From positions 187 through 64,186 of the forward strand of contig PKTJ01000066.1 in assembly GCA_002869205.1 (NCBI GenBank): a stretch of DNA of 64,000 nucleotides. Direction: 5' to 3'. Each line of letters opens with the position of its first letter. Position 1 is the stretch's first letter. A model generated the notes under the pieces. That model did no database searches. It worked only from the letters and a program-made list of their open reading frames with translations, and had not been told where the DNA came from. Positions 9,782-63,974 of the stretch are shown here, piece after piece. The stretch is from Candidatus Parcubacteria bacterium. Its GTDB lineage: Bacteria > Patescibacteriota > Patescibacteriia > Magasanikbacterales > UBA922. The position numbers were made by a program, and so were the translations under genes.

Positions 9782-10195
9782 ATGGATTCCTATACAAGAA
9801 CTCTTACTGATGACGAAAAGAAACGTCTCAAAGAAGCGATTGAGACTAAATTACAAGAGACAATCGTACAAGAAGATAGAGTCAAAGATCCAGAAGCAGC
9901 GACGGAATTGATCGAGCGTATTGTTGGTAGATTGGATCAGGACGGTATGAATATTAGGGATTTCCAAACAGCCATGGCTCAAGAACTCGAACGTCTGTTA
10001 CGTGTTGCAGGTGATATTTTCAAAGAAGGTCCTGAAGGTGAAATGAGAAGAGGTGTCCAGCAACAAATAGGAGTTTTTACAAGGTTTTTACAAGATGAGT
10101 CTCGTGCCATACTTTTTCCCCCAGAGGGTGGGGGCAGGGATGCTTCTACAGAATTTCCTGATAACGTAACAAAAGGACCCTGGTCAAAAAGATAA
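9782..10195 (+). CDS. hypothetical protein (137 aa)
   Basis: ORF only. Upstream context AGATAATTATATTTTTATG nearly identical to that of pheS at 10187-10208. Confidence 0.4.
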   Translation: MDSYTRTLTDDEKKRLKEAIETKLQETIVQEDRVKDPEAATELIERIVGRLDQDGMNIRDFQTAMAQELERLLRVAGDIFKEGPEGEMRRGVQQQIGVFTRFLQDESRAILFPPEGGGRDASTEFPDNVTKGPWSKR

Positions 10196-19400: not shown

Positions 19401-19904
19401 GCAGCCAAGAAAAAAATAACAAAAAAAGGTTCTGTCATGATGTTTGCGACAATTCAAGATATGACAGGTCGTATTGAAATGTTGGTTTTTCCAAAAGCAT
19501 ATGAAGTAAGTAAAGAAGTTTGGGAAGCGGGTAATGTTGTGTGTGTGGTAGGAAAAACTCCGCGCGAAGATGGAGACAATAAGATATTTGTAGAAAAGGC
19601 ATATGTATTAACGAAAGAAAATATTGAACAAATTAGTGGGTATCTATCTTTTAATACAAGTGGTGTAGAAAAAAAGAAGAAAGAAGAAAATAGTAAGTAT
19701 ATTACAATAGGTTTGACTCAAGATGAGGTCAAGGAATATACCAATGATCTAAAAGTATTGTTAGAAGAATATCCGGGTAATTACGATGTATATGTTCGTG
19801 TTGGTATGAACACAATTCGTGCTCAATCACAAGTTGACTGGAACGAAGAGTTGAAGGATAGACTTGAGTCACTGATAGGTCCAGGTAAGGTAGAAGTGCG
19901 GTAA
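16428..19904 (+). CDS. dnaE: DNA polymerase III alpha subunit
   Basis: PHP domain start (HLHVHSHYSLLNG), polymerase core motifs, OB-fold C-terminus; 1158 aa. Confidence 0.95.
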   Translation: MDFVHLHVHSHYSLLNGLSKVKALVKAAKKRGFKALALTDYGSMYGAIEFYQACLAEDIKPIIGFEAYVAPRSRHDKDPEKDKGVYHIMLLAENFEGYQNLMRLSSIGHLEGFFNDKPRVDKELLKEFGKGVIALSGPIEGEVPQLLKDNKDDEAKKVVAEFEEIFGKGNFYLELQDHPAIEGQMQVNTKLIQLSKDVNTPLVVTRDVHYLDFNEAEAQDVLRCISNGWKVGQSDREDYRHVDRSFNTAQDIISRFKHVPEAIENTVKIADRVDLDIPLNNWHFAPVDLPEGKNADEHLRDEAYRCVSDFYGDTTQELKDRIEYELDIIKTKGYSPYFICVADYVRYAKRNGIVESTRGSAAGSLVSYILGITTVDPMRFKLPFERFLNPYRPSPPDIDTDFADDRREEMIEYMTRKYGEDKVAQIITFGTMAARASVRDVGRALALSYGFCDQVAKLIPQGAQGFPMTIERALKEEPDLKKLYEMNEDVKRLLDLAQQVEGCARHTSIHAAGVVVSPTPLTDFSPVQRETGGDKLTTQYEMHSVETAGVLKNDFLGIRNLAILGNAVVIVEKTTGDKIDIYNLPLDDTKTFEMLARGETMGVFQLAGAGMTRWVKELKPNRIEDIMAMVALYRPGPMESIPEYIHRKYNPETVSYLDPRLEKILDASYGLLVYQDDVMLTAIELAGYDWMEADKFRKAMGKKVPEEMAKQKIKFYDGCKNHGKVPKNIIDELWTAIEPFAAYGFNKAHAASYGIVAYQTAYMKAHYPVQYMTSVLQAESGDADKISAIVGECRRINIEVLPPDVNESFKSFAMVSKPGEKGRIRFGLTAIKNVGDHICDVIYRERKANGQYKDLEDFLDRIDDKDLNKKSVESLAQAGALDCFGYDRGVLMANSENILGYIKQIKEKRTTNQDSLFAGTDIALDSKVRIDDTEPATLEQKLVWEKTLLGIYVSSHPFAYYEKFLGNKVVPVAEVEEKDRDSWVVVGGVIDAAKKKITKKGSVMMFATIQDMTGRIEMLVFPKAYEVSKEVWEAGNVVCVVGKTPREDGDNKIFVEKAYVLTKENIEQISGYLSFNTSGVEKKKKEENSKYITIGLTQDEVKEYTNDLKVLLEEYPGNYDVYVRVGMNTIRAQSQVDWNEELKDRLESLIGPGKVEVR

Positions 19905-19922
19905 TAAAAATATATAAAAAAT

Positions 19923-19958
19923 TCCCTCTGGCAAAAACCAGAGGGATTTATTTTTCTT
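19923..19958 (+). terminator. rho-independent terminator after dnaE
   Basis: TCCCTCTGG-caaaaa-CCAGAGGGA followed by a T-run. Confidence 0.7.
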
Positions 19959-20034
19959 TGGAGGCGCCGTCAAGAAACGACGCCTGTCGGGGAGGGGAAC
20001 GCCCCGCCGCCCGAAGGCGGCGGGAGTAGAGCGT

Positions 20035-21078
20035 TCAGCGAGTTGTGCGGATCGAGGTGTCCCAGTGGTGGTGGTAGATGATGTGACCGAGGTCTGTGAG
20101 CCACGAGACGACACGGATCTTGCCCGACTTGACGAAGGGGTTCAAGAACTGTCGATTCACGAGCGGGACCGTGTCTGCGACGTAGAGGCGATCGAGCGGC
20201 GAGTGATCGAGCTGCAGGTTCTCCACCGCGTCACCACACAGAATGGCGTGCGTAACGATTGCCCAGAATTCGTGGATCTCGGCACGTTCTCGGACGGTGT
20301 TAGCTGTCCTCAGATTCGTGCTGACTGTCGCCGCTTCATCGTCCACAGACAGAACCAGTGCACCTTCGAGTTCATCGACATCTCGATAGATGTCTTTGAT
20401 CTCGACGTCGCGGCTGTTTCCACGACGTTTGTCACCAAACGTCGTGAAGATGTCACAGTCGAGCTCGTCGGCCACGTTCGTGACAGCTTCCTCATAGCGC
20501 TTCTTGGCGCCGTTGTCTGGGTAGTGTACGACGATCTTGTCGTGAGTTTGCAGCGCTTCTTCGAGCGCCTGCTTGAATACGCGCTTGAACATACTCACTT
20601 CGGTGATGAGACCAGGGTCACCGGCCATCACAACCTGCGAAGCGTGGAGATCGACGGAGATGATTCTGTCGAGTCTGCCTTGCGCGGCCGTCTTCATCAG
20701 CGAGACGATGAGGGGTGGAAGAGCGAACTCGTCGTCAGCTTCGTCTCTGTCGGATCGCGAGAGCGGGAAGTAGGCGGTGATGACGGTGATTCGGGCGGCT
20801 CTTCTGCCTGCCACGTGGTTGAGCAAGAAGAATAGGTTCACGAGCATGTCGGGGGTGCCAGGGCCACTGGTCAAGATCACGCAGTCGTGACCGCCGATGT
20901 GCTTCTTCTTCAGCTTGATGAAGGGTTCTTTGCTGCTGCGCCGACCGAAGATCGGAGACGCGATGTCGACAGGCGTCTCTTTCCTTTCGATCTGCTCTTT
21001 GAGAAGGGTGGCGATGTCTTCGAATCCGGGCATGGGAACGAGCGTGAGCGCGCCGTGCTGGCTGTGTCTGTCTTTCAT
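20035..21078 (-). CDS. divergent ribose-phosphate pyrophosphokinase (PRPP synthetase) family protein, second copy
   Basis: Aligns along its whole length to Prs (HDCVILTSG..RITVITAYFPLSRSDRD..DLHASQ..KRRGNSRDVE..SVDDEAATVST). Signature loops are altered: GYARQDRK becomes PLSRSDRD and DTGGT becomes EAATVST. GAGGG ribosome-binding site 8 nt before the ATG. Confidence 0.7.
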   Translation of the reverse strand: MKDRHSQHGALTLVPMPGFEDIATLLKEQIERKETPVDIASPIFGRRSSKEPFIKLKKKHIGGHDCVILTSGPGTPDMLVNLFFLLNHVAGRRAARITVITAYFPLSRSDRDEADDEFALPPLIVSLMKTAAQGRLDRIISVDLHASQVVMAGDPGLITEVSMFKRVFKQALEEALQTHDKIVVHYPDNGAKKRYEEAVTNVADELDCDIFTTFGDKRRGNSRDVEIKDIYRDVDELEGALVLSVDDEAATVSTNLRTANTVRERAEIHEFWAIVTHAILCGDAVENLQLDHSPLDRLYVADTVPLVNRQFLNPFVKSGKIRVVSWLTDLGHIIYHHHWDTSIRTTR

Positions 21079-21158
21079 AACGAAACCCTCGTAATTAGAT
21101 CAAGAAAACGACCTCCCCGGCCGTCTCCTCGATGTGTGAAATGAGCAAACATGTCACC

Positions 21159-21188
21159 ATAATAATTGTTTTGAGTTGTCATGTCAAC
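21159..21188 (-). promoter_or_regulatory. sigma70-like promoter for the prs-like gene (TTGACA-17-TATTAT)
   Basis: Minus-strand -35 at 21183-21188 and -10 at 21159-21164, between the udk terminator and the prs-like ribosome-binding site. Confidence 0.55.
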
Positions 21189-21202
21189 CATAAAAAAAAC
21201 GA

Positions 21203-21233
21203 ACACCCCGAGGCCGAAGCCACCGGGGTTTTA
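21203..21233 (-). terminator. rho-independent terminator downstream of udk
   Basis: Minus strand AAAACCCCGGTGGC-ttcg-GCCTCGGGGTGTT followed by T8. Confidence 0.65.
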
Positions 21234-21239
21234 GTTCGC

Positions 21240-21863
21240 TCAGGATGGGTGGAATCCGTTGAGCATCTGTTCGAGTCCTGCCTGAATGAACAGGCGTGCG
21301 ATCTCGTTGTTCCCGCCGTGTGGCACGATCAGGTTCGCGTGTCTGCGGGTCGGGTGACAGAATTCGTCGTGCATGGGTGCGACAGTGCCTTCCCATTGCT
21401 CGAGGATACCTTCGAGTTTGCGTCCTCGTTCCAGAACGTCTCGTTTGATACGACGCGCGAGACGTGTGTCTCCGGGCGTGTCGACGTAGATCTTGATCTT
21501 GGCGAGGCTTACCAATTCAGGTACAGCGAGCGCGAGTATTCCTTCGGCGATGATGAACGTTTTTGGGTCCACCTGGACACGCTCAGGTTCACGCGAATGC
21601 GTGTTGTAGTCCCAGCGCGGGGTCTGGACCGATACACCATCGACGAGCTCGCGAACGTGTGACACCATTAGGATGTTGTCGAAAGACCCTGGGTGGTCGA
21701 AGTTGCCGTTCTGGACGTAGGGAGACTCGGGGTCGTAATAGAAGTCGTGGCAGATTCGACAGCACTTGTCATCGCCGAGCATTCGGATGATTTCACGCGC
21801 GAGCGTTGTCTTACCAGAACCAGTGCCACCAGCGACGATGATCACGACAGGCGTGTTTTCCAT
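21240..21863 (-). CDS. udk: uridine/cytidine kinase
   Basis: P-loop GGTGSGKTT, NFDHPGSFD, FIIAEGIL, YVDTPGDTRLARRIKRDVLERGR, ANLIVPHGGNN; near colinear with E. coli Udk. Start placed at MENTPVV, which has GGAGG 9 nt upstream. Confidence 0.85.
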   Translation of the reverse strand: MENTPVVIIVAGGTGSGKTTLAREIIRMLGDDKCCRICHDFYYDPESPYVQNGNFDHPGSFDNILMVSHVRELVDGVSVQTPRWDYNTHSREPERVQVDPKTFIIAEGILALAVPELVSLAKIKIYVDTPGDTRLARRIKRDVLERGRKLEGILEQWEGTVAPMHDEFCHPTRRHANLIVPHGGNNEIARLFIQAGLEQMLNGFHPS

Positions 21864-21959
21864 CTTGAGCTTCCTCCAATTTGCAACAAAGCAGGCCATC
21901 GGCCTGCTCCTTTGTTGTATTTCAGAAATATTGTAACGCTACTTTTGTAGTTTGTCAAA

Positions 21960-22220
21960 TTATTCTACATCTCCATTTTCTTTGATTTTTTCGTCTTCGT
22001 ATGGAGCGATGTGTTTTCTATAGAGTTCGAGTTTACATGATTCAAGTGCACCAACAAGTTCGTTCCAGTCTTTATATCTTCCCTCACCTTTGTTCAATAA
22101 AAGAAGTTTTGTGATGGTGTAATTTAGGTCACCAGCACGCTGGTCTGTGCTTATGAGCTTTGCAAGTTCTGTTATTGTTGGATCAAGACGTTCGCGGTCT
22201 TGTGGTAGGATGTATGGCAT
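21960..22220 (-). CDS. hypothetical protein (86 aa)
   Basis: AT-rich, host-like ORF between island A and prs. Confidence 0.4.
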   Translation of the reverse strand: MPYILPQDRERLDPTITELAKLISTDQRAGDLNYTITKLLLLNKGEGRYKDWNELVGALESCKLELYRKHIAPYEDEKIKENGDVE

Positions 22221-22225
22221 ACAAT

Positions 22226-22317
22226 GAGTTTATAAAGTTTAAAAGTTTAAAAAGTATACAAACTAACTATATGTAAAATACTTTACAAACTTTATAACTT
22301 TAGTAACTTTCGAACTC
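22226..22317. repeat. AAAGTT-motif inverted-repeat element (MITE-like), overlaps the 3' end of prs
   Basis: Left arm GAGTTTATAAAGTTTAAAAGTTTAAAAAG and right arm CTTTACAAACTTTATAACTTTAGTAACTTTCGAACTC are imperfect inverted copies; related elements at 53854-53931 and 54097-54183. Confidence 0.5.
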
Positions 22318-23250
22318 ATTAATAGATTTTACACTTTCATTTTTATGGATTTTTGAAATAATTTCAGCAAATCGTTTGCTCACTGACACTATTTCCAAAT
22401 CTCGTAGGTTGTGATGGTCACTTGGAATTGTGTCAGTAGTAATGAATTTGGTGATAGGGGAGTTGTTTAGTTTTTCACTTGCGCCTACACCCAAATTCGC
22501 GTGTATGAAACATGCATCTACACTCACTGCTCCTGCAGAATTGAGGAGAAATTCAGCATCTTCAATCAATGTTCCACCACTAAGTGTTTCGTCATCAATG
22601 ATAAGACATTTTTTATTTTGTACATCACCAATAACACCTTTGATTTTTACTTTTTCATCATTACCAATTCTACGTTTATCCATCATAGCAACAGGTAAGT
22701 CGAGACTGTCGGCATACGATTCCATCATTTTTGCTGCGCCGCTGTCTCCAGCTACGAGAACATAATTAGATAAATCCCAATTCTGTTTTAGGTGTTTGAT
22801 AATATCTGGTGCCGCAATGAGATGATCACACGGTACGCCGAAGAAGCCATGGAGTTGTGCCGAGTGCATCTCCATGATGAGGACACGGTTTGCACCAGCT
22901 GTCTGTAGCATGTCGGCTATGAGTTTGGCAGTAATACAAATTCGTGGTTGATCTTTTTTGTCTGATCGTGCATATGAAAAGTAGGGGAGAACTGCGGTAA
23001 TTCTTTTTGCAGAAGCATCTCTGAGTGTTCTGATATACATGAGAAGTTCCATGATATGGATGTGTACCGGTGTTGTGTGAGTTTGTATAACAAACACATC
23101 ATCTCCTCGCACAGCCTCATCAACAGTCACAAATTTATCTCCATTACTAAATGTTATAGAAGATGTTTGTGTCTCTTCTATATCCAAGTGTTCACAGATT
23201 TTCTTTACAAATCCTTTGTGGCTGCTACCACCAATAATTTTGAGGGACAT
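22300..23250 (-). CDS. prs: ribose-phosphate pyrophosphokinase (host copy)
   Basis: Canonical motifs DDVFVIQTHT, RITAVLPYFSYARSDKK, MEMHSAQ, IIDDETLSGGTL; AT-rich codon usage. Confidence 0.9.
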   Translation of the reverse strand: MSLKIIGGSSHKGFVKKICEHLDIEETQTSSITFSNGDKFVTVDEAVRGDDVFVIQTHTTPVHIHIMELLMYIRTLRDASAKRITAVLPYFSYARSDKKDQPRICITAKLIADMLQTAGANRVLIMEMHSAQLHGFFGVPCDHLIAAPDIIKHLKQNWDLSNYVLVAGDSGAAKMMESYADSLDLPVAMMDKRRIGNDEKVKIKGVIGDVQNKKCLIIDDETLSGGTLIEDAEFLLNSAGAVSVDACFIHANLGVGASEKLNNSPITKFITTDTIPSDHHNLRDLEIVSVSKRFAEIISKIHKNESVKSINEFESY

Positions 23251-25964: not shown

Positions 25965-26204
25965 TTATGTAACCAAGAAGTGTGTTCCTACACTTTCTTT
26001 TCTATCTAGAGCCGACTGAGTAATCAATTTTGCTACAGTATGTAAGTTTTTAAGTTCAAGAATTTCTTTGTTTATACCATCGTTTAATATCTCTTTAAGT
26101 TCTATATTGTATTTATTTAATTCTTCAAGTGTTTTTTTCATATTTTCTTCTTTTCGAATAATGCCAACATTATTCCACATCAATTTTTGAATTGATGATT
26201 TCAT
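25965..26204 (-). pseudogene. nadB: L-aspartate oxidase C-terminal helical-domain fragment, separated from the nadB body by an in-frame TAA
   Basis: Sequence LELKNLHTVAKLITQSALDRKESVGTHF matches the NadB/flavoprotein C-terminal domain. It lies in the same frame as 26247-27485, and the only interruption is a TAA inside the 8-bp tandem repeat. Confidence 0.7.
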
Positions 26205-26230
26205 TTTTTTAATTTTTGGATCATTATTTT

Positions 26231-26274
26231 TTCCAACTTTCCAACTTTACAACTTTCCAACTTTCCAACTTTTT
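26231..26274. repeat. 8-bp tandem repeat (CCAACTTT)x5, i.e. AAAGTTGG on the coding strand; the third unit reads AAAGTTGT and creates TAA
   Basis: Read directly from the sequence. Confidence 0.9.
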
Positions 26275-28830: not shown

Positions 28831-30180
28831 TTATTTACTTAATTCCATCATTTTATCTAAACTTATTTTTGCTTTTTGTAATACTTCTTTACCAAGATTA
28901 ATAATTTGATCTTTACGTGGATTCTTAAGTGCAGTGAGAATATCTTCTAACTTTATTTTTTTCATATACGGACAGAGCTGGCAGCTACCAACAATGTGTT
29001 TATTCGGGAATTCTGTTTGTACCCTGTCGGTAATACCGCATTCAGTAATTAGCATGTAGTGCTCAGAAGGGTTGTCTTTTACATAGTTCAACATATCACT
29101 CGTGCTACCAACTAGATCAACCGAGTCAATGACAGAGGGGGTGCATTCATAATGTGCTAATATTTTTGTATGAGGAAATTGAGCTCTAATTTTTTTTACT
29201 GCGCGTTTATCAAATTGTTCATGCACTATGCATACACCATCCCATAAAATTAACTTTTTTTTCGTCAATTTTTGTAAGTTATGCCCCATAAGCATGTCGG
29301 GAATAAAAATAATTTCATCGTTTGGAAGACTTTCGATAATTTTGAGTGCATTTGAACTGGTGACACATATATCACTTTGAGCTTTTACTTCCGCACTCGT
29401 GTTTACATATGTCAAAATAGGAACTCCTGGATGTTTTTCTTTTAGATTTTGTACATCTTTGGCAGTGATTGAGTCAGCGAGTGAACATCCTGCAACTGCA
29501 GGAATAAGGACTTCTTTTTCTGGACTCAAGATTTTTGCAGTCTCACCCATGAAGTGTACTGAGCAAAAAATAATTTTCTTTGCGCTGTGTTCTGCCGCAA
29601 TTTTACTAAGCCCATATGAATCTCCAAGGAAGTCTGCTACACCATACATAATGTCTGTTGTTTGGTAAGAGTGGGCGAGTATGATGGCATCTTGTTCACG
29701 CTTTAATTTATTTATTTCAAGTGTTGTTGGTGCAATGCTTAGACAGTAGCCAAATGTCCTTTTTGTTTTTTTTAATTTTTCAAATAGACGTGCAGCTTCT
29801 TCACGTATCTCGGTTGCGCTGATGTTAATATTTTTTTTAATCATTTTTACGTTGTAATTTTTTTCTTCAAATAATTTTTTTACTACATCATTTCCTGTAT
29901 ATACTGTGTCAAATTCTCCAACAGTATTTTTGACATGATTAACCCATTCATTTTCGTTATGAATATCAGGAATGGCGATGATTTGATAATTTAAATTTAA
30001 TCCATCTAGATTAGATTCTATGTTTTTTTTACGCTCCTCAAAACTTTGTGGATTGTCATCGGTTTCACTATATTGTGAGCTACCAACACCAATAATAATC
30101 TCACTTTCTGAGATTTGTTTAATGGCATCTAAATGCCCATCATGAAATGGCTGGAATCGTCCGATGAATAGTGCTTTCAT
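28831..30180 (-). CDS. nadA: fusion protein: N-terminal NadM-type NMN adenylyltransferase plus C-terminal quinolinate synthase
   Basis: N-terminus GRFQPFHDGH..ISATEIR (cytidylyltransferase, NadM-like). C-terminus ILAHSYQ, VADFLGDS, CSVHFMGETAKIL, TYVNTS, VTSSNA and Cys ligands of NadA. Confidence 0.8.
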   Translation of the reverse strand: MKALFIGRFQPFHDGHLDAIKQISESEIIIGVGSSQYSETDDNPQSFEERKKNIESNLDGLNLNYQIIAIPDIHNENEWVNHVKNTVGEFDTVYTGNDVVKKLFEEKNYNVKMIKKNINISATEIREEAARLFEKLKKTKRTFGYCLSIAPTTLEINKLKREQDAIILAHSYQTTDIMYGVADFLGDSYGLSKIAAEHSAKKIIFCSVHFMGETAKILSPEKEVLIPAVAGCSLADSITAKDVQNLKEKHPGVPILTYVNTSAEVKAQSDICVTSSNALKIIESLPNDEIIFIPDMLMGHNLQKLTKKKLILWDGVCIVHEQFDKRAVKKIRAQFPHTKILAHYECTPSVIDSVDLVGSTSDMLNYVKDNPSEHYMLITECGITDRVQTEFPNKHIVGSCQLCPYMKKIKLEDILTALKNPRKDQIINLGKEVLQKAKISLDKMMELSK

Positions 30181-55864: not shown

Positions 55865-56575
55865 CTAGTTCACGGTGTGGTCGTCGCGCCACCTGGCACA
55901 GATGTCGTCCGGGTACTTCCACGTACCGTCGTCTCGGGTGTCGAGACAGTGGATCATCGGATCTTCCTGTGAGGTAGAGATGTTGTAGGATGTGCCATCT
56001 GGTGTGATGATGATGACCGTCGAGGTGATCGGCTTGTCACCTTCATGTTTCCAGTCAGTCGGTCCACGATACGGGCGAGGGGAGATGTCGAGGTGGGTGT
56101 TTTCATCGCAGTTCTTACCCTCGATGTAGAAGCAGCGACCGTATTCCGGGATGGGATAGATGCCGTGAAACTCTATGTGACAGACCGCGTGCGTGATGCA
56201 CTCGTGAGGAAGTTCCTCACCGAGACAGTCACTCACGGTGGCGCACTCGTAGTTGTCGTAGTCTGGCGCGGGGAGCTCCGACGCTTCGATCGAATCGACG
56301 TAGATGAACGAGTCGACTTCGATTTCACCCACGAGAACCCACTCGTAGATGGATCCGTCCGGCGTCCAGAAGGGGCCGTCGAGCCAGATGACTTCATCAC
56401 GCTTGGGTTGTGCCGCCATCGTGGCGGCCTTGTCCAGCGTCTTCATCTTATCCGTCGAGTCCTGCTGCTCGGCTTCCAGGGACGCGCCGAATCCGATCGC
56501 GATCGACGCGAACAGGACGAGGGTCATCATAGGGACGTTGACGATGGTTCTGATGCTGGCCGCTCGGTTGCTCAT
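55865..56575 (-). CDS. secreted/membrane-anchored cysteine-rich hypothetical protein (~236 aa)
   Basis: Signal/TM segment MMTLVLFASIAIGFGASLEA and 10 Cys. Start placed at MSNRAAS, which has AGGAG 7 nt upstream. The plus-strand ORFs 56045-56710 and 56349-56807 are Arg-rich antisense artefacts. Confidence 0.6.
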   Translation of the reverse strand: MSNRAASIRTIVNVPMMTLVLFASIAIGFGASLEAEQQDSTDKMKTLDKAATMAAQPKRDEVIWLDGPFWTPDGSIYEWVLVGEIEVDSFIYVDSIEASELPAPDYDNYECATVSDCLGEELPHECITHAVCHIEFHGIYPIPEYGRCFYIEGKNCDENTHLDISPRPYRGPTDWKHEGDKPITSTVIIITPDGTSYNISTSQEDPMIHCLDTRDDGTWKYPDDICARWRDDHTVN

Positions 56576-56626
56576 TTTCGAGCTCCTCATTGTGTCCGTG
56601 GGCTTTTTCGAGCCCTGTTGCGATTC

Positions 56627-61173: not shown

Positions 61174-61292
61174 GAATATAACATAATATCAAAAAATGAT
61201 CCGGAGAGGGTCATTTTTTATTTGCTTTTTATTTTTGGTCGTGTTAGGTTTTATATATTGTCAACAATGTTCTCCACCAGATGAGGTCTGAT

Positions 61293-62045
61293 ATGAGCAT
61301 CAGGTTTACGTGTGAAGTCGAGACGCCTGACGGTGTCGTGCGATTCGTTCTTGATTCGTGGCGTTCTTCGTCGGAGGATGATCGAACCATCGAGCCGGAG
61401 TTCTATGTGGATTACTGTGCGGATGGTCAGATCCCGCAGGGTCCTCATCACGAGGTCGAGATCCTCGAGCCGGCGAAGATCGGTGGTCACGAGCACGAAG
61501 AAGTCATCCACTATCACATCAATCGTGGTGGTGGGCAGTTCGTGTGCTGGACCGGTTCTCTGCCGTCGCTCAGTGCGGTCAGTACCATGCTTCGCGTGTG
61601 GTGTGCTGGGACTGCCTTCACCATGGCGACTGGTAAGGACTTCACGGTCGAGTTCGAGGGTGATTTCGATCAGATCGTACGCGGCCTTTCTGAGGCCGGA
61701 TACAAGGTAGTTCTGTGTCGTAACGACCTGCAGCAGTTCGAAATTAGTATGACGTTTTCTCATAACGTGACATGGTCTGCTTTCAGCTCACCGCTGGTCA
61801 AGGAGATCGTGGCGCGGCTGCCGCGTGAGCAAGAAGACGTCTTGCGTGCAGTAGTAGAACACTTGCGTTCTCGCACACCACACGAGAACGGCGCGATCGA
61901 AGACAGTCTCATGGTTGCCTGGGGTGTGTTCTGTCAGAGGCTTCGGGGTAATTTGGACCTCAGCGAGCCTATCGCGACGCCATTGGCGATCGGTGATCTG
62001 AGCGGGTGGGTTCTGTGGGCTGAAGAAAGCGCCAACATGTGCTGA
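61293..62045 (+). CDS. hypothetical cytoplasmic protein (250 aa)
   Basis: ORF with GC-rich codon usage; start placed at MSIRFT, which has GAGGT upstream. Confidence 0.5.
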   Translation: MSIRFTCEVETPDGVVRFVLDSWRSSSEDDRTIEPEFYVDYCADGQIPQGPHHEVEILEPAKIGGHEHEEVIHYHINRGGGQFVCWTGSLPSLSAVSTMLRVWCAGTAFTMATGKDFTVEFEGDFDQIVRGLSEAGYKVVLCRNDLQQFEISMTFSHNVTWSAFSSPLVKEIVARLPREQEDVLRAVVEHLRSRTPHENGAIEDSLMVAWGVFCQRLRGNLDLSEPIATPLAIGDLSGWVLWAEESANMC

Positions 62046-62238: not shown

Positions 62239-63060
62239 ATGTCGCATAAGAATAGTTCGCGTTCGTTCATGCAGAACCTCGGTACGTACCGTGTGCAGCG
62301 TAGAATCTTCATTTTTTCGACACTTATCTCTCTGATCGTGATGTGTTCACTGCGTTCGGATAGCAGCGACGACCAAGAACAAGAGGTCGCTGTGTCAGCC
62401 ACTCCTGTCATCGTGCCGACGCAGTCCGGTCGTCCGGCGATTCCTGGACCGCTCGAGATTCCGAGCGATGAATTCAGGAAGTGGTCGGCCAAAGAGCTTG
62501 ATCGAATCGTGCGTACACACCCGAGTGAATTGATCTCTCGAGATCTGCTCGGACATGTCGAGGCACGTCCTCGCCGAGTTCATCCGAGTTTCGCTCTCGT
62601 CGAGACACCGGTACCACGCATGGCACAAGCGTTTTGCGATCTTCTGCCAAGCAGTGGAACTCGCGTGGGCTTCACCATCTTTCCGAGACTGTTCTTTGCA
62701 GACAATGTCTCGGATGTGGATCGTTACACCGCGCTTTACCATGAGTATGACCATATCGCCGAGATGCTGGCAGACCCATCCCTGTGTCCGTTTTTCTCAG
62801 AGACATGGGTCGGCACGTCTCTCGAGGTCCGTAGGTTTTTTGACCTCGAGATGCAGGCCTACAGCGCGGCATGTGAATTCGAGATCGTACATGAGCTTGT
62901 GGACCGGGCGCACCAGTCGGGCTGTCGCATATATCGCGATCAGGGTCCGGAGACTTATCTGAGGCTCACCTCTACACGTCTCGAAGCTATGCCGATCTTC
63001 GCGCCGTACCGGAACAAGCTTCTGGGATGGGCGCGTGAGTACATCGAACATAATCGTTAG
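62239..63060 (+). CDS. membrane-anchored HExxH-motif protein (putative zinc metallopeptidase-like)
   Basis: N-terminal hydrophobic segment IFIFSTLISLIVMC and a YHEYDH (HExxH) motif; otherwise unknown. Confidence 0.5.
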   Translation: MSHKNSSRSFMQNLGTYRVQRRIFIFSTLISLIVMCSLRSDSSDDQEQEVAVSATPVIVPTQSGRPAIPGPLEIPSDEFRKWSAKELDRIVRTHPSELISRDLLGHVEARPRRVHPSFALVETPVPRMAQAFCDLLPSSGTRVGFTIFPRLFFADNVSDVDRYTALYHEYDHIAEMLADPSLCPFFSETWVGTSLEVRRFFDLEMQAYSAACEFEIVHELVDRAHQSGCRIYRDQGPETYLRLTSTRLEAMPIFAPYRNKLLGWAREYIEHNR

Positions 63061-63350: not shown

Positions 63351-63974
63351 ATGCGCGTTTGTAGCTTGTTCTCGATCCTGGTTCTCAGTGTCTCTTTCTC
63401 CTTCCTCGCTGCGTGCAACGATGATTCGTCTGGCGGCAGCGGTACGGTGGAGGAGACTGAGTACATCTCCTGCAATCCGGCTATGGGAGGTGACTGCCCG
63501 GATGGATCCTCGTGCGCTCGTCTCGAAGGCGATGCGCACACGCTCTCGGTATGCGTCCAGGACGAGCACGTGCCCTGTGTCGCCGACTTCGAGTGCGATG
63601 GCGGGCAGTGTATCTCCGTCCAGGGTCTTCAGCAGACCATCTGCACTCAGTCCTTGGCTGAAGATATCGGCTGTCCGTTCTACGGCTTTGATGAGCTCGA
63701 GTACGAGGTGAAGGTCGGGAACGAGACGTTCTACTTGCTCACCGAGTATGTCTCGGAATCGTGTGAGCTGTCCATGAGGCTGAAGTCCGACCTTAGCAAC
63801 ATGGCCTGGCATTACGTCTTGTACGTCGATGAGGATGACAGCCTCCGTGGCGTCGTCGGCAATGGCGCCCAGGTCGAAGTCCTTCACCTCAGCTTGGGCT
63901 GGATCCAGGTTCGTGAGACCGATCCGGACGGCGGCGCCGACCCGATCGAATACACCTTCTTCCTCGTACCGTAG
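63351..63974 (+). CDS. cysteine-rich lipoprotein, hypothetical
   Basis: Signal peptide with canonical lipobox FLAAC and about 14 Cys. The minus-strand ORF 63327-63887 is judged antisense. Confidence 0.55.
   Translation: MRVCSLFSILVLSVSFSFLAACNDDSSGGSGTVEETEYISCNPAMGGDCPDGSSCARLEGDAHTLSVCVQDEHVPCVADFECDGGQCISVQGLQQTICTQSLAEDIGCPFYGFDELEYEVKVGNETFYLLTEYVSESCELSMRLKSDLSNMAWHYVLYVDEDDSLRGVVGNGAQVEVLHLSLGWIQVRETDPDGGADPIEYTFFLVP

Follow-up and report, generated by a model that had tools for sequence, protein, structure and literature searches.

A divergent PRPP-synthetase-like family at the prs slot of Candidatus Parcubacteria

The 64,000-nucleotide stretch of contig PKTJ01000066.1 analysed here, in the following termed the window, stems from Candidatus Parcubacteria, a Magasanikbacteria-like lineage of the candidate phyla radiation (CPR), and has a GC content of 0.39. 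In addition to the canonical prs gene for phosphoribosyl pyrophosphate (PRPP) synthetase it carries a second, Prs-like gene. Judged by the conserved residues, the family of this gene is an uncharacterised, sharply delimited variant of PRPP synthetase: the acceptor site and the chemistry appear to be kept, the canonical adenine contacts and the regulatory sites appear to be lost. We consider it somewhat probable that the Prs-like protein acts as another PRPP synthase, exchangeable with the canonical enzyme at one and the same chromosomal position. A first-pass annotation of the window had already noticed that the canonical Prs is accompanied by a second, divergent protein of the same fold, and its presence was confirmed by the fold and by the TIGR01251 profile, on which the two proteins obtained 92.4 and 307 bits, respectively.

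20035..21078, minus strand: Prs-like gene, 347 aa, divergent PRPP-synthetase family (open reading frame (ORF), TIGR01251, AlphaFold2 (AF2) model, Foldseek, residue mapping)
22300..23250, minus strand: canonical prs, resident PRPP synthetase with a host-like GC content of 0.389 (TIGR01251)

Fold and active site of the Prs-like protein

The Prs-like protein was 100% identical to the deposited protein C0581_05020. Its AF2 model (pLDDT 90.7) matched class I PRPP synthetases (PRPS; human PRPS1, E. coli, Thermus) in full length with TM scores of 0.79 for the query and 0.86 for the target, and all of the top 50 Foldseek matches were PRPS (TM 0.74-0.79 query, 0.81-0.89 target, ~335-340 columns). In the model, two tandem PRT-type (phosphoribosyltransferase) domains including the C-terminal helices are present over the full length of the protein. 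A profile comparison (hhalign) of the family with E. coli Prs yielded a probability of 99.1% and an E-value of 1e-18. Across 37 family members, the best E-value against TIGR01251 was 2e-32, about the cutoff level; on NF002320 the Prs-like protein of the window obtained 88 bits at a cutoff of 297.

Residue roles were taken from E. coli filament structures (PMC9232217) and from PMC13586617 and were mapped by alignment to E. coli PRPS. In this enzyme, ribose 5-phosphate (R5P) binding and catalysis involve the side chains of D170, D220, D221, T225, T228, H131, R99, K194 and R196, the adenine contacts F35 and D37 are provided by the neighbouring subunit, and R102 and E133 are allosteric residues (PMC9232217). 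The catalytic, metal and phosphate residues R96, D98, R99, H131, D170, K194 and R196 were retained in the Prs-like protein as R108, D110, R111, H145, D188, K217 and R219, and across the family they were invariant or at least 90% conserved. The R5P ligands D220, D221, T225 and T228 were found as D246, D247, T251 and T254, and Q134 was likewise present. Replacements were located elsewhere. The adenine contacts F35 and D37 were changed to R47 and S49 within a family consensus of R-[AS]-[SN]-G-E-P, with F35 replaced by R in at least 90% of the members and D37 by S or N throughout the family. Among the allosteric positions, R102 was replaced by A in the window copy (G in the family) and E133 by S (P in the family), and an I was aligned with R49, which we take to be an allosteric-site position of E. 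coli PRPS. In the phosphate loop, the window copy had D224 changed to A, as in 107 of 119 family members, and G226-G227 changed to V-S.

The first-pass annotation had regarded the R5P and PRPP loops as rewritten. The motif letters had been quoted correctly, but YFGYARQDRR aligns with YFPLSRSDRD, leaving R96, D98 and R99 unchanged, and DDMIDTGGT aligns without insertion with DDEAATVST, leaving D220, D221, T225 and T228 unchanged. Since the canonical prs of the host itself reads YFSYARSDKK, the change from RQDR to RSDR is not special to the Prs-like protein. Both glycines of the loop were present in 56% of the family, which keeps TGGT, a single glycine in 32% and no glycine in 12%. The substitutions concern the adenine and allosteric sites; a rewriting of the acceptor loops is not supported. 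The annotation had itself named the presence of all catalytic and R5P-binding residues as evidence against its proposal; for the side chains this is essentially what was observed, with V-S in place of the Gly-Gly in the loop.

With the class I PRPS (E. coli Prs, B. subtilis Prs and human PRPS1; TIGR01251) the Prs-like protein has in common the fold, the KRR flexible loop, the catalytic and R5P residues and the C-terminal helices. It differs by an identity of only 20-27%, the replaced adenine contacts, allosteric residues and D224, the variable Gly-Gly, and signatures of its own at both ends. The signatures of the family are GGLTLVPMPGFE at the N-terminus, HIGGHDC, RSDKDEG, DDEIATGGT and HHWDxSIRExR at the C-terminus. 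Class II (plant) and class III (archaeal) PRPP synthetases are defined without the canonical allosteric ADP/Pi site, and this site is presumed to be lost in the Prs-like family as well. The family profile detected the archaeal class III structures 1u9y, 4twb and 3lpn with 38-46 bits versus 88-99 bits for class I structures; by sequence, the family forms a clade of its own.

Family extent, the prs slot and base composition

Two hundred sixty-four homologs of the Prs-like protein were obtained, and a HMMER scan of 1.84 billion representatives detected 62 with an E-value of 1e-30 or lower; in total the family comprises about 60 clusters at 50% identity. Most full-length members scored at least 225 bits on the family profile and ordinary Prs 100-115 bits, and owing to this gap the family has to be seen as a discrete clade; three weaker full-length proteins (P0414, P0415, P0417) reached 124-159 bits. 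Members are 347-360 aa long, have an intact C-terminus and are often annotated as hypothetical protein; in the literature, no paper describing the family was found. In a scan of GTDB species genomes 49 loci were identified, most of them in Patescibacteria (Magasanikbacteria, Uhrbacteria and unnamed lineages). A tight clade labelled Myxococcota/Polyangiales and Gemmatimonadota (L011-L015, L021, L022, L050) was 72-83% identical across the phyla, which suggests a recent inter-phylum transfer or mis-binned metagenome-assembled genomes. The family is under purifying selection, with dN/dS ratios of 0.08-0.09 for close pairs at a dS of ~1, values close to those of the neighbouring dnaE and tsaD genes. 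Several contigs with family members (L018, L024, L025, L030, L039, L041, L045, L053, L054) that are small, of low GC content, CPR-like and syntenic with Magasanikbacteria at tsaD and dnaE carry the public title 'uncultured Gammaproteobacteria bacterium', likely a mislabelling.

The position of the Prs-like gene between tsaD and the convergent dnaE, here termed the prs slot, was compared among the loci. In the window and in related genomes, the slot is occupied as follows:

Canonical prs alone, DUF6899 and MFS genes present or absent: L061, L062, L063 (pyk, not dnaE, as the next gene), L064, P0267 contig
Prs-like gene only, in the same orientation: L027, L031, L049
Prs-like gene directly upstream of tsaD, the locus lacking a canonical prs: L042, L051, L053, L059
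Both, in the order prs, DUF6899, udk (uridine kinase gene), Prs-like: window, L054

Two homologs that alternate at one position, with intermediates holding both copies, suggest that the Prs-like protein is functionally equivalent to the canonical Prs, by way of in situ displacement or of reciprocal loss. The closest relatives of the window by DnaE identity, L062 (79%) and L061 (74%), had neither udk nor the Prs-like gene, and canonical prs orthologs were 60-80% identical across Magasanikbacteria. Among the top 120 matches listed, only the window and L054 carried canonical prs and the Prs-like gene on one contig. The slot forms the end of a gene cluster for de novo NAD synthesis, in which NadC is a consumer of PRPP. 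Encoded upstream, in the same direction, are nadE, a nadD-nadA fusion, nadC, nadB, tsaD, an MFS gene, prs and DUF6899. A one-off recent insertion is contradicted by the Prs-like genes that adjoin dnaE in several related genomes and by homologs in core chromosomal contexts. The neighbourhood survey of homologs, proposed in the first-pass annotation with phages and mobile elements in mind, revealed these core contexts and, in CPR, Myxococcota and Gemmatimonadota alike, no informative conserved partner gene. MFS genes adjoin the Prs-like gene in L008 and L017 as well; they were not detectably related to the MFS gene of the window at an E-value of 1e-8, and a link to MFS was dropped.

In base composition, the Prs-like gene and udk stood out as foreign, in agreement with the first-pass annotation. 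The GC content was 0.55-0.65 across ~19,950-21,900, with sharp edges, and 0.34-0.44 on either side; for the block delimited at 19,960-21,905 it amounts to 55-60%. This GC-rich block contains only the two minus-strand genes, Prs-like (GC 0.573, and 0.730 at third codon positions (GC3)) and udk (GC 0.564, GC3 0.663); the canonical prs had a GC3 of 0.315. The GC content of the Prs-like gene was 2.9 standard deviations over the mean of the 51 ORFs of the window. Since the same gene order was found in L054, an independent assembly, the locus is not an assembly artefact. Throughout the family the Prs-like gene exceeded its flanks in GC content by more than 0.05 in 36 of 58 loci and by more than 0.10 in 21 of them, with an excess of up to +0.20; GC3 values reached 0.78 although the hosts have a GC content of 0.40. 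Among 35 CPR loci, it was the most GC-rich ORF in 19 (median z 2.2). Host-like GC contents were observed in the Myxococcota and Gemmatimonadota loci and in a few CPR lineages (L030, L049, the Uhrbacteria clade). By its GC-rich codons the family is recognised as a xenolog where it occurs in CPR genomes. We prefer the explanation that the gene was acquired repeatedly from GC-rich donors and has ameliorated incompletely over the alternative of a maintained bias. The Prs-like gene of L053 (10001-11071), opposite in orientation to tsaD, was 43-49% identical to the copies of L042, L051 and L059, which share 76-86% with each other. Because this copy is divergent despite DnaE and TsaD identities of 78-80% between L053 and these three loci, at least one replacement occurred, and it was clearly by a xenolog. 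In L027/L031 and in L042/L051/L059, GC-rich copies were inherited vertically through a dS of ~1.

Displacement of a resident gene in situ by a xenolog is said to have been described by Omelchenko and colleagues in 2003. The likeness is in the compositionally foreign homolog that stands beside or instead of the resident gene, at the same position, in related genomes. Unlike in the classic case, the xenolog would here be a member of a deep paralog family and not an ortholog from another lineage.

Function of the Prs-like protein and rival explanations

Because the catalytic and R5P residues are kept and the adenine contacts and allosteric-site arginines are lost, the Prs-like protein would make PRPP from R5P without the usual control by ADP and Pi, possibly with a relaxed choice of the nucleotide donor. 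The block would then be an accessory nucleotide-salvage pair of a uridine kinase and a divergent ribose-phosphate pyrophosphokinase, and the window would show the prs slot at a stage of xenolog displacement, or of differential loss, in which both copies are present. PRPP synthesis is favoured mainly because of the alternation with canonical prs in the slot. Several observations weigh against an alternative PRPP synthase. The TIGR01251 score of the Prs-like protein is below the cutoff of 113 bits. The window copy has Val-Ser at the usual Gly-Gly of the 5-phosphate loop and thus belongs to the small glycine-less part of the family, and its SGE motif has K for G. The occupation of the slot by the Prs-like gene only is a statement on the locus, and a canonical prs may be present elsewhere in those genomes. 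The persistent GC excess is unexplained if the gene is an old resident. Finally, the neighbour-joining tree of 52 members was star-like; on such a tree, differential loss of two old paralogs and repeated acquisition look alike, and the transfers have no defined number or direction.

A changed substrate specificity, with the same chemistry on another donor (a non-adenine nucleoside triphosphate or deoxynucleoside triphosphate) or on a ribose acceptor other than R5P, is rather doubtful but is the main rival; it retains the general idea of the first-pass annotation without the label of the phage enzyme Adps. The family-wide replacement of the adenine contacts F35 and D37, the 5-phosphate loop relaxed to T-x-x-T with the frequent exchange of D224 to A, the invariant family-specific HHW...R..R tail at the C-terminus and the sharp separation of the family from Prs are all consistent with it, as is the fact that the window and L054 have the canonical gene too. 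But all side chains holding R5P are kept, and the simplest reason why the gene takes the place of canonical prs in several genomes is that both enzymes have the same product. Nor is there a conserved partner gene that would indicate another pathway. More far-reaching and unlikely is the proposal of a new functional class of Prs-fold pyrophosphokinases: a PRPP synthase free of regulation whose nucleotide donor is non-adenine or promiscuous, or else an enzyme for a related ribose phosphate. The gene would be horizontally mobile among Patescibacteria, Myxococcota and Gemmatimonadota, would repeatedly displace canonical prs at one slot, and would be expressed by way of a conserved leader attenuator. 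If this were true, the GC excess would stem from repeated new uptake of the gene out of GC-rich donors, which may be the hosts of the episymbionts.

The PRPS-associated proteins PAP39 and PAP41 are eukaryotic, carry inserts and have no activity of their own. They are likewise divergent Prs-fold paralogs beside a canonical enzyme, and they gave a weak C-terminal match to the Prs-like protein. A non-catalytic or regulatory subunit in a hetero-oligomer with canonical Prs, like these mammalian proteins or yeast Prs1/Prs5, would fit to the position of the gene beside its canonical counterpart in the window and L054, to the weak C-terminal matches with PAP1 and PAP2 structures and to the altered allosteric and interface residues. 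Such a role is improbable for a family in which, unlike in PAP39/PAP41, variation is absent or almost absent at the catalytic lysine and arginine, at His131 and Asp170 and at the R5P ligands, and the gene is often alone in the prs slot: most loci had no canonical prs nearby, L027, L031 and L049 hold the slot with the Prs-like gene alone, and the PAP matches were much weaker than the Prs matches. That the window copy is a redundant passenger, a decaying duplicate residing transiently beside a functional prs, appears quite improbable. The relatives L061 and L062 live without the gene, the window copy is a long branch (best identity 53% versus the typical 77%), and V-S for Gly-Gly and K for G are unusual. 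Against decay, the ORF of 347 codons is intact and has its own promoter with an 11/12 match and a ribosome-binding site (RBS), the copy agrees with the family at 65 of the 72 conserved positions, among them every catalytic one, with the 7 departures being inside the family range, and the family as a whole is under strong purifying selection.

Very improbable, and largely refuted, is the suggestion that the protein is an Adps-like ADP-ribose pyrophosphokinase for NAD reconstitution on a mobile or anti-defence island. It had been drawn from the Prs fold with an altered pyrophosphate (PP) loop, and the NAD biosynthesis genes adjoining the locus and the compositionally foreign block would agree with it. 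Adps has a CDxAAS PP loop (C215-S220) that binds ATP, has lost the C-terminal helices alpha11-alpha12, and has degenerate canonical allosteric sites (PMC13586617). In common with the Prs-like family are the Prs-derived fold, the catalytic lysine, the DD motif and the degenerate allosteric sites. Adps, however, is a protein of about 280 aa, phage-encoded beside Namat, whereas the Prs-like family of 347-360 aa is chromosomal in CPR, Myxococcota and Gemmatimonadota. The loop of the window copy is DDEAATVST and not CDxAAS, and its C-terminus was aligned to the PRPS C-terminus. On the profile phrog_619, ICP1 Adps scored 285 bits, E. coli Prs 193, the host prs 126 and the Prs-like protein 67.5; hhalign of the family profile with ICP1 Adps gave a probability of 65% (E 6e-5), far from the value for E. 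coli Prs, and BLASTP of the Prs-like protein against ICP1 Adps (gp228) was not significant. By these scores, the family stands farther from Adps than ordinary Prs does. No Namat or NAMPT gene was located near the Prs-like gene, whose neighbours are dnaE, udk, DUF6899 and prs. The family had no matches among the 2.9 million viral contigs of IMG/VR, a comparison with 50,697 phage records gave none above 29% identity, and the plasmid search returned canonical Prs only, without a member of the family. PADLOC matched neither the Prs-like nor the DUF6899 protein and hit Udk only as P-loop noise; membership in a defence system was rejected on this result.

An alternative PRPP synthase would be of relevance for the interpretation of CPR genomes. 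CPR/Patescibacteria have no de novo nucleotide synthesis and therefore depend on salvage, for which the supply of PRPP is central. A second, sharply distinct PRPP-synthetase-like family in the canonical slot would change the inference of PRPP supply from these genomes, and the GC excess seen across the family may serve as a visible sign that genes pass between episymbionts and GC-rich bacteria. Existing knowledge is not overturned; the family presents a well-delimited enzyme-family question rather than a new kind of system.

Uridine kinase, leaders and surroundings of the block

The second gene of the block encodes a genuine uridine kinase, as the first-pass annotation had stated.

21240..21863, minus strand: udk, 207 aa (NF004018, PF00485, deposited protein, RBS)
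21960..22220, minus strand: DUF6899 gene, usual downstream partner of canonical prs in the lineage (PF21840 98.7 bits)

Udk scored 219.8 bits on NF004018 (cutoff 180), 112 bits on PF00485 and 196 bits on TIGR00235, just below the cutoff of 220, and has the P-loop GGTGSGKTT. The ORF extends to 21899; the start was set at 21863 on account of the RBS GGAGGA 8 nt ahead of this ATG and of the deposited 207-aa protein. A general pairing of Prs-like and Udk proteins was not observed: udk adjoined the Prs-like gene in 2 of 59 loci and the pairing is lineage-specific. The Udk proteins of the window and L054 were only 40% identical, and each resembles Acidobacteriota-type Udk proteins at least as much as it does the other. 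DUF6899 adjoins prs also in L054 (8859-9116), L062 (8992-9252), L063 (8133-8393) and the P0267 contig. The DUF6899 protein has 86 aa, and its gene is absent where the Prs-like gene alone fills the slot.

Signals for transcription were located at both genes, among them the promoter of the Prs-like gene and the udk terminator already listed in the first-pass annotation:

21159..21187, minus strand: sigma-70-like promoter of the Prs-like gene, TTGACA-17-TATTAT, 11/12 consensus match
21930..21958, minus strand: sigma-70-like promoter of udk, TTGACA-17-TACAAT, 11/12, directly after the DUF6899 stop codon
21192..21229, minus strand: terminator-like hairpin (21229-21205) and T-run after udk
21099..21133, minus strand: attenuator-like leader hairpin and U-tract of the Prs-like gene between promoter and RBS, core stem 21125-21119 / 21113-21107
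21884..21907, minus strand: leader hairpin of udk, GCAGGCC-gat-GGCCTGC and TTTGTTG, between promoter and RBS

Both genes show the same arrangement of a promoter, 20-35 nt, a GC-rich hairpin with flanking A-tract and U-tract, an RBS and the ATG, and among 37 promoter-like sites in the window such a hairpin was present at these two only. The Prs-like leader folds with -29 kcal/mol, and GGTCGTTTTCTTG in this leader is identical between the window and L054. The udk of L054 has a homologous upstream hairpin, ACAGGCC-attgt-GGCCTGT with TTGTTT. Promoters equivalent to that of the window were found upstream of the Prs-like gene in L054, L027, L031, L042, L053 and L059. A hairpin with U-tract precedes the Prs-like start by 25-28 nt in L054, L027, L042, L053 and L059, with differing stem sequences, and is also visible in the sequence of L031. 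Counting both genes, the arrangement of promoter and hairpin is at 9930-9960 and 9170-9205 in L054; in L027 it is at about 9945-9975. The leader hairpin is likely an attenuator or an expression throttle. Both genes would probably be transcribed from their own strong promoters through the hairpin and U-tract, which would throttle or regulate their expression; the leader composed of promoter, hairpin and RBS is a candidate for a regulatory element. An Rfam scan of 19,500-22,500 returned only two sub-threshold matches, both at the dnaE terminator, and none for the leaders. Attenuation by a leader peptide was considered for ORFs of the window and L054 that read through the hairpin and end at an ATGA overlap. 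The idea was dropped because in L054 the ATG of this ORF coincides in part with the -10 box, and because a comparable ORF is missing in L027 and L031.

At the left border of the block, two further structures were identified:

19923..19946, no strand: bidirectional terminator common to the convergent dnaE, AT-rich left edge of the block (sequence signals, GC step)
20003..20024, minus strand: GC-rich hairpin CCCGCCGCC-ttcg-GGCGGCGGG directly 3' of the Prs-like stop codon, without U-tract (read from sequence)

Neither an integrase or transposase gene nor flanking direct repeats were detected in the block when it was inspected as a mobile island, and direct or inverted repeats at its borders were not convincing, being no better than chance. 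The closest tRNA genes are at 31 kb and 53.8 kb. The island-like traits of the block are limited to the GC anomaly and its presence or absence in comparison with L061 and L062. An imperfect 16-nt inverted repeat (19974-19989 / 21845-21860, 88% complementary) brackets the block, one arm being 3' of the Prs-like stop codon and the other inside the first udk codons; as 1 of 45 comparable pairs in 2.3 kb it is probably due to chance.

Further GC-rich ORFs, of 0.54-0.585 GC against an ORF mean of 0.40, are present in the window at 55865-56590 (minus strand), 61281-62045, 62239-63060 and 63351-63974 (all plus strand), where they constitute additional islands, and none of the four had a Pfam match. 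Scattered GC-rich ORFs occur in related CPR loci too; those more than 0.09 above the locus median in GC were clustered and fell into 33 singletons, thus being mutually unrelated. In the NAD cluster of the window, nadB is broken at 26204-26250 (minus strand) by an in-frame stop inside a 7-codon tandem duplication (..KSWKVGKL*SWKVGKN..), and its C-terminal part continues as an ORF at 25965-26204. The gene may thus have become a pseudogene or have been split, or the assembly may be faulty here. The complete cluster nadE / nadD-nadA / nadC / nadB includes a fused protein of a NadD-type nucleotidyltransferase (CTP_transf_like) and NadA at 28831-30180 (minus strand), and the same NadD-NadA fusion was found in L062, L063 and the P0267 contig.

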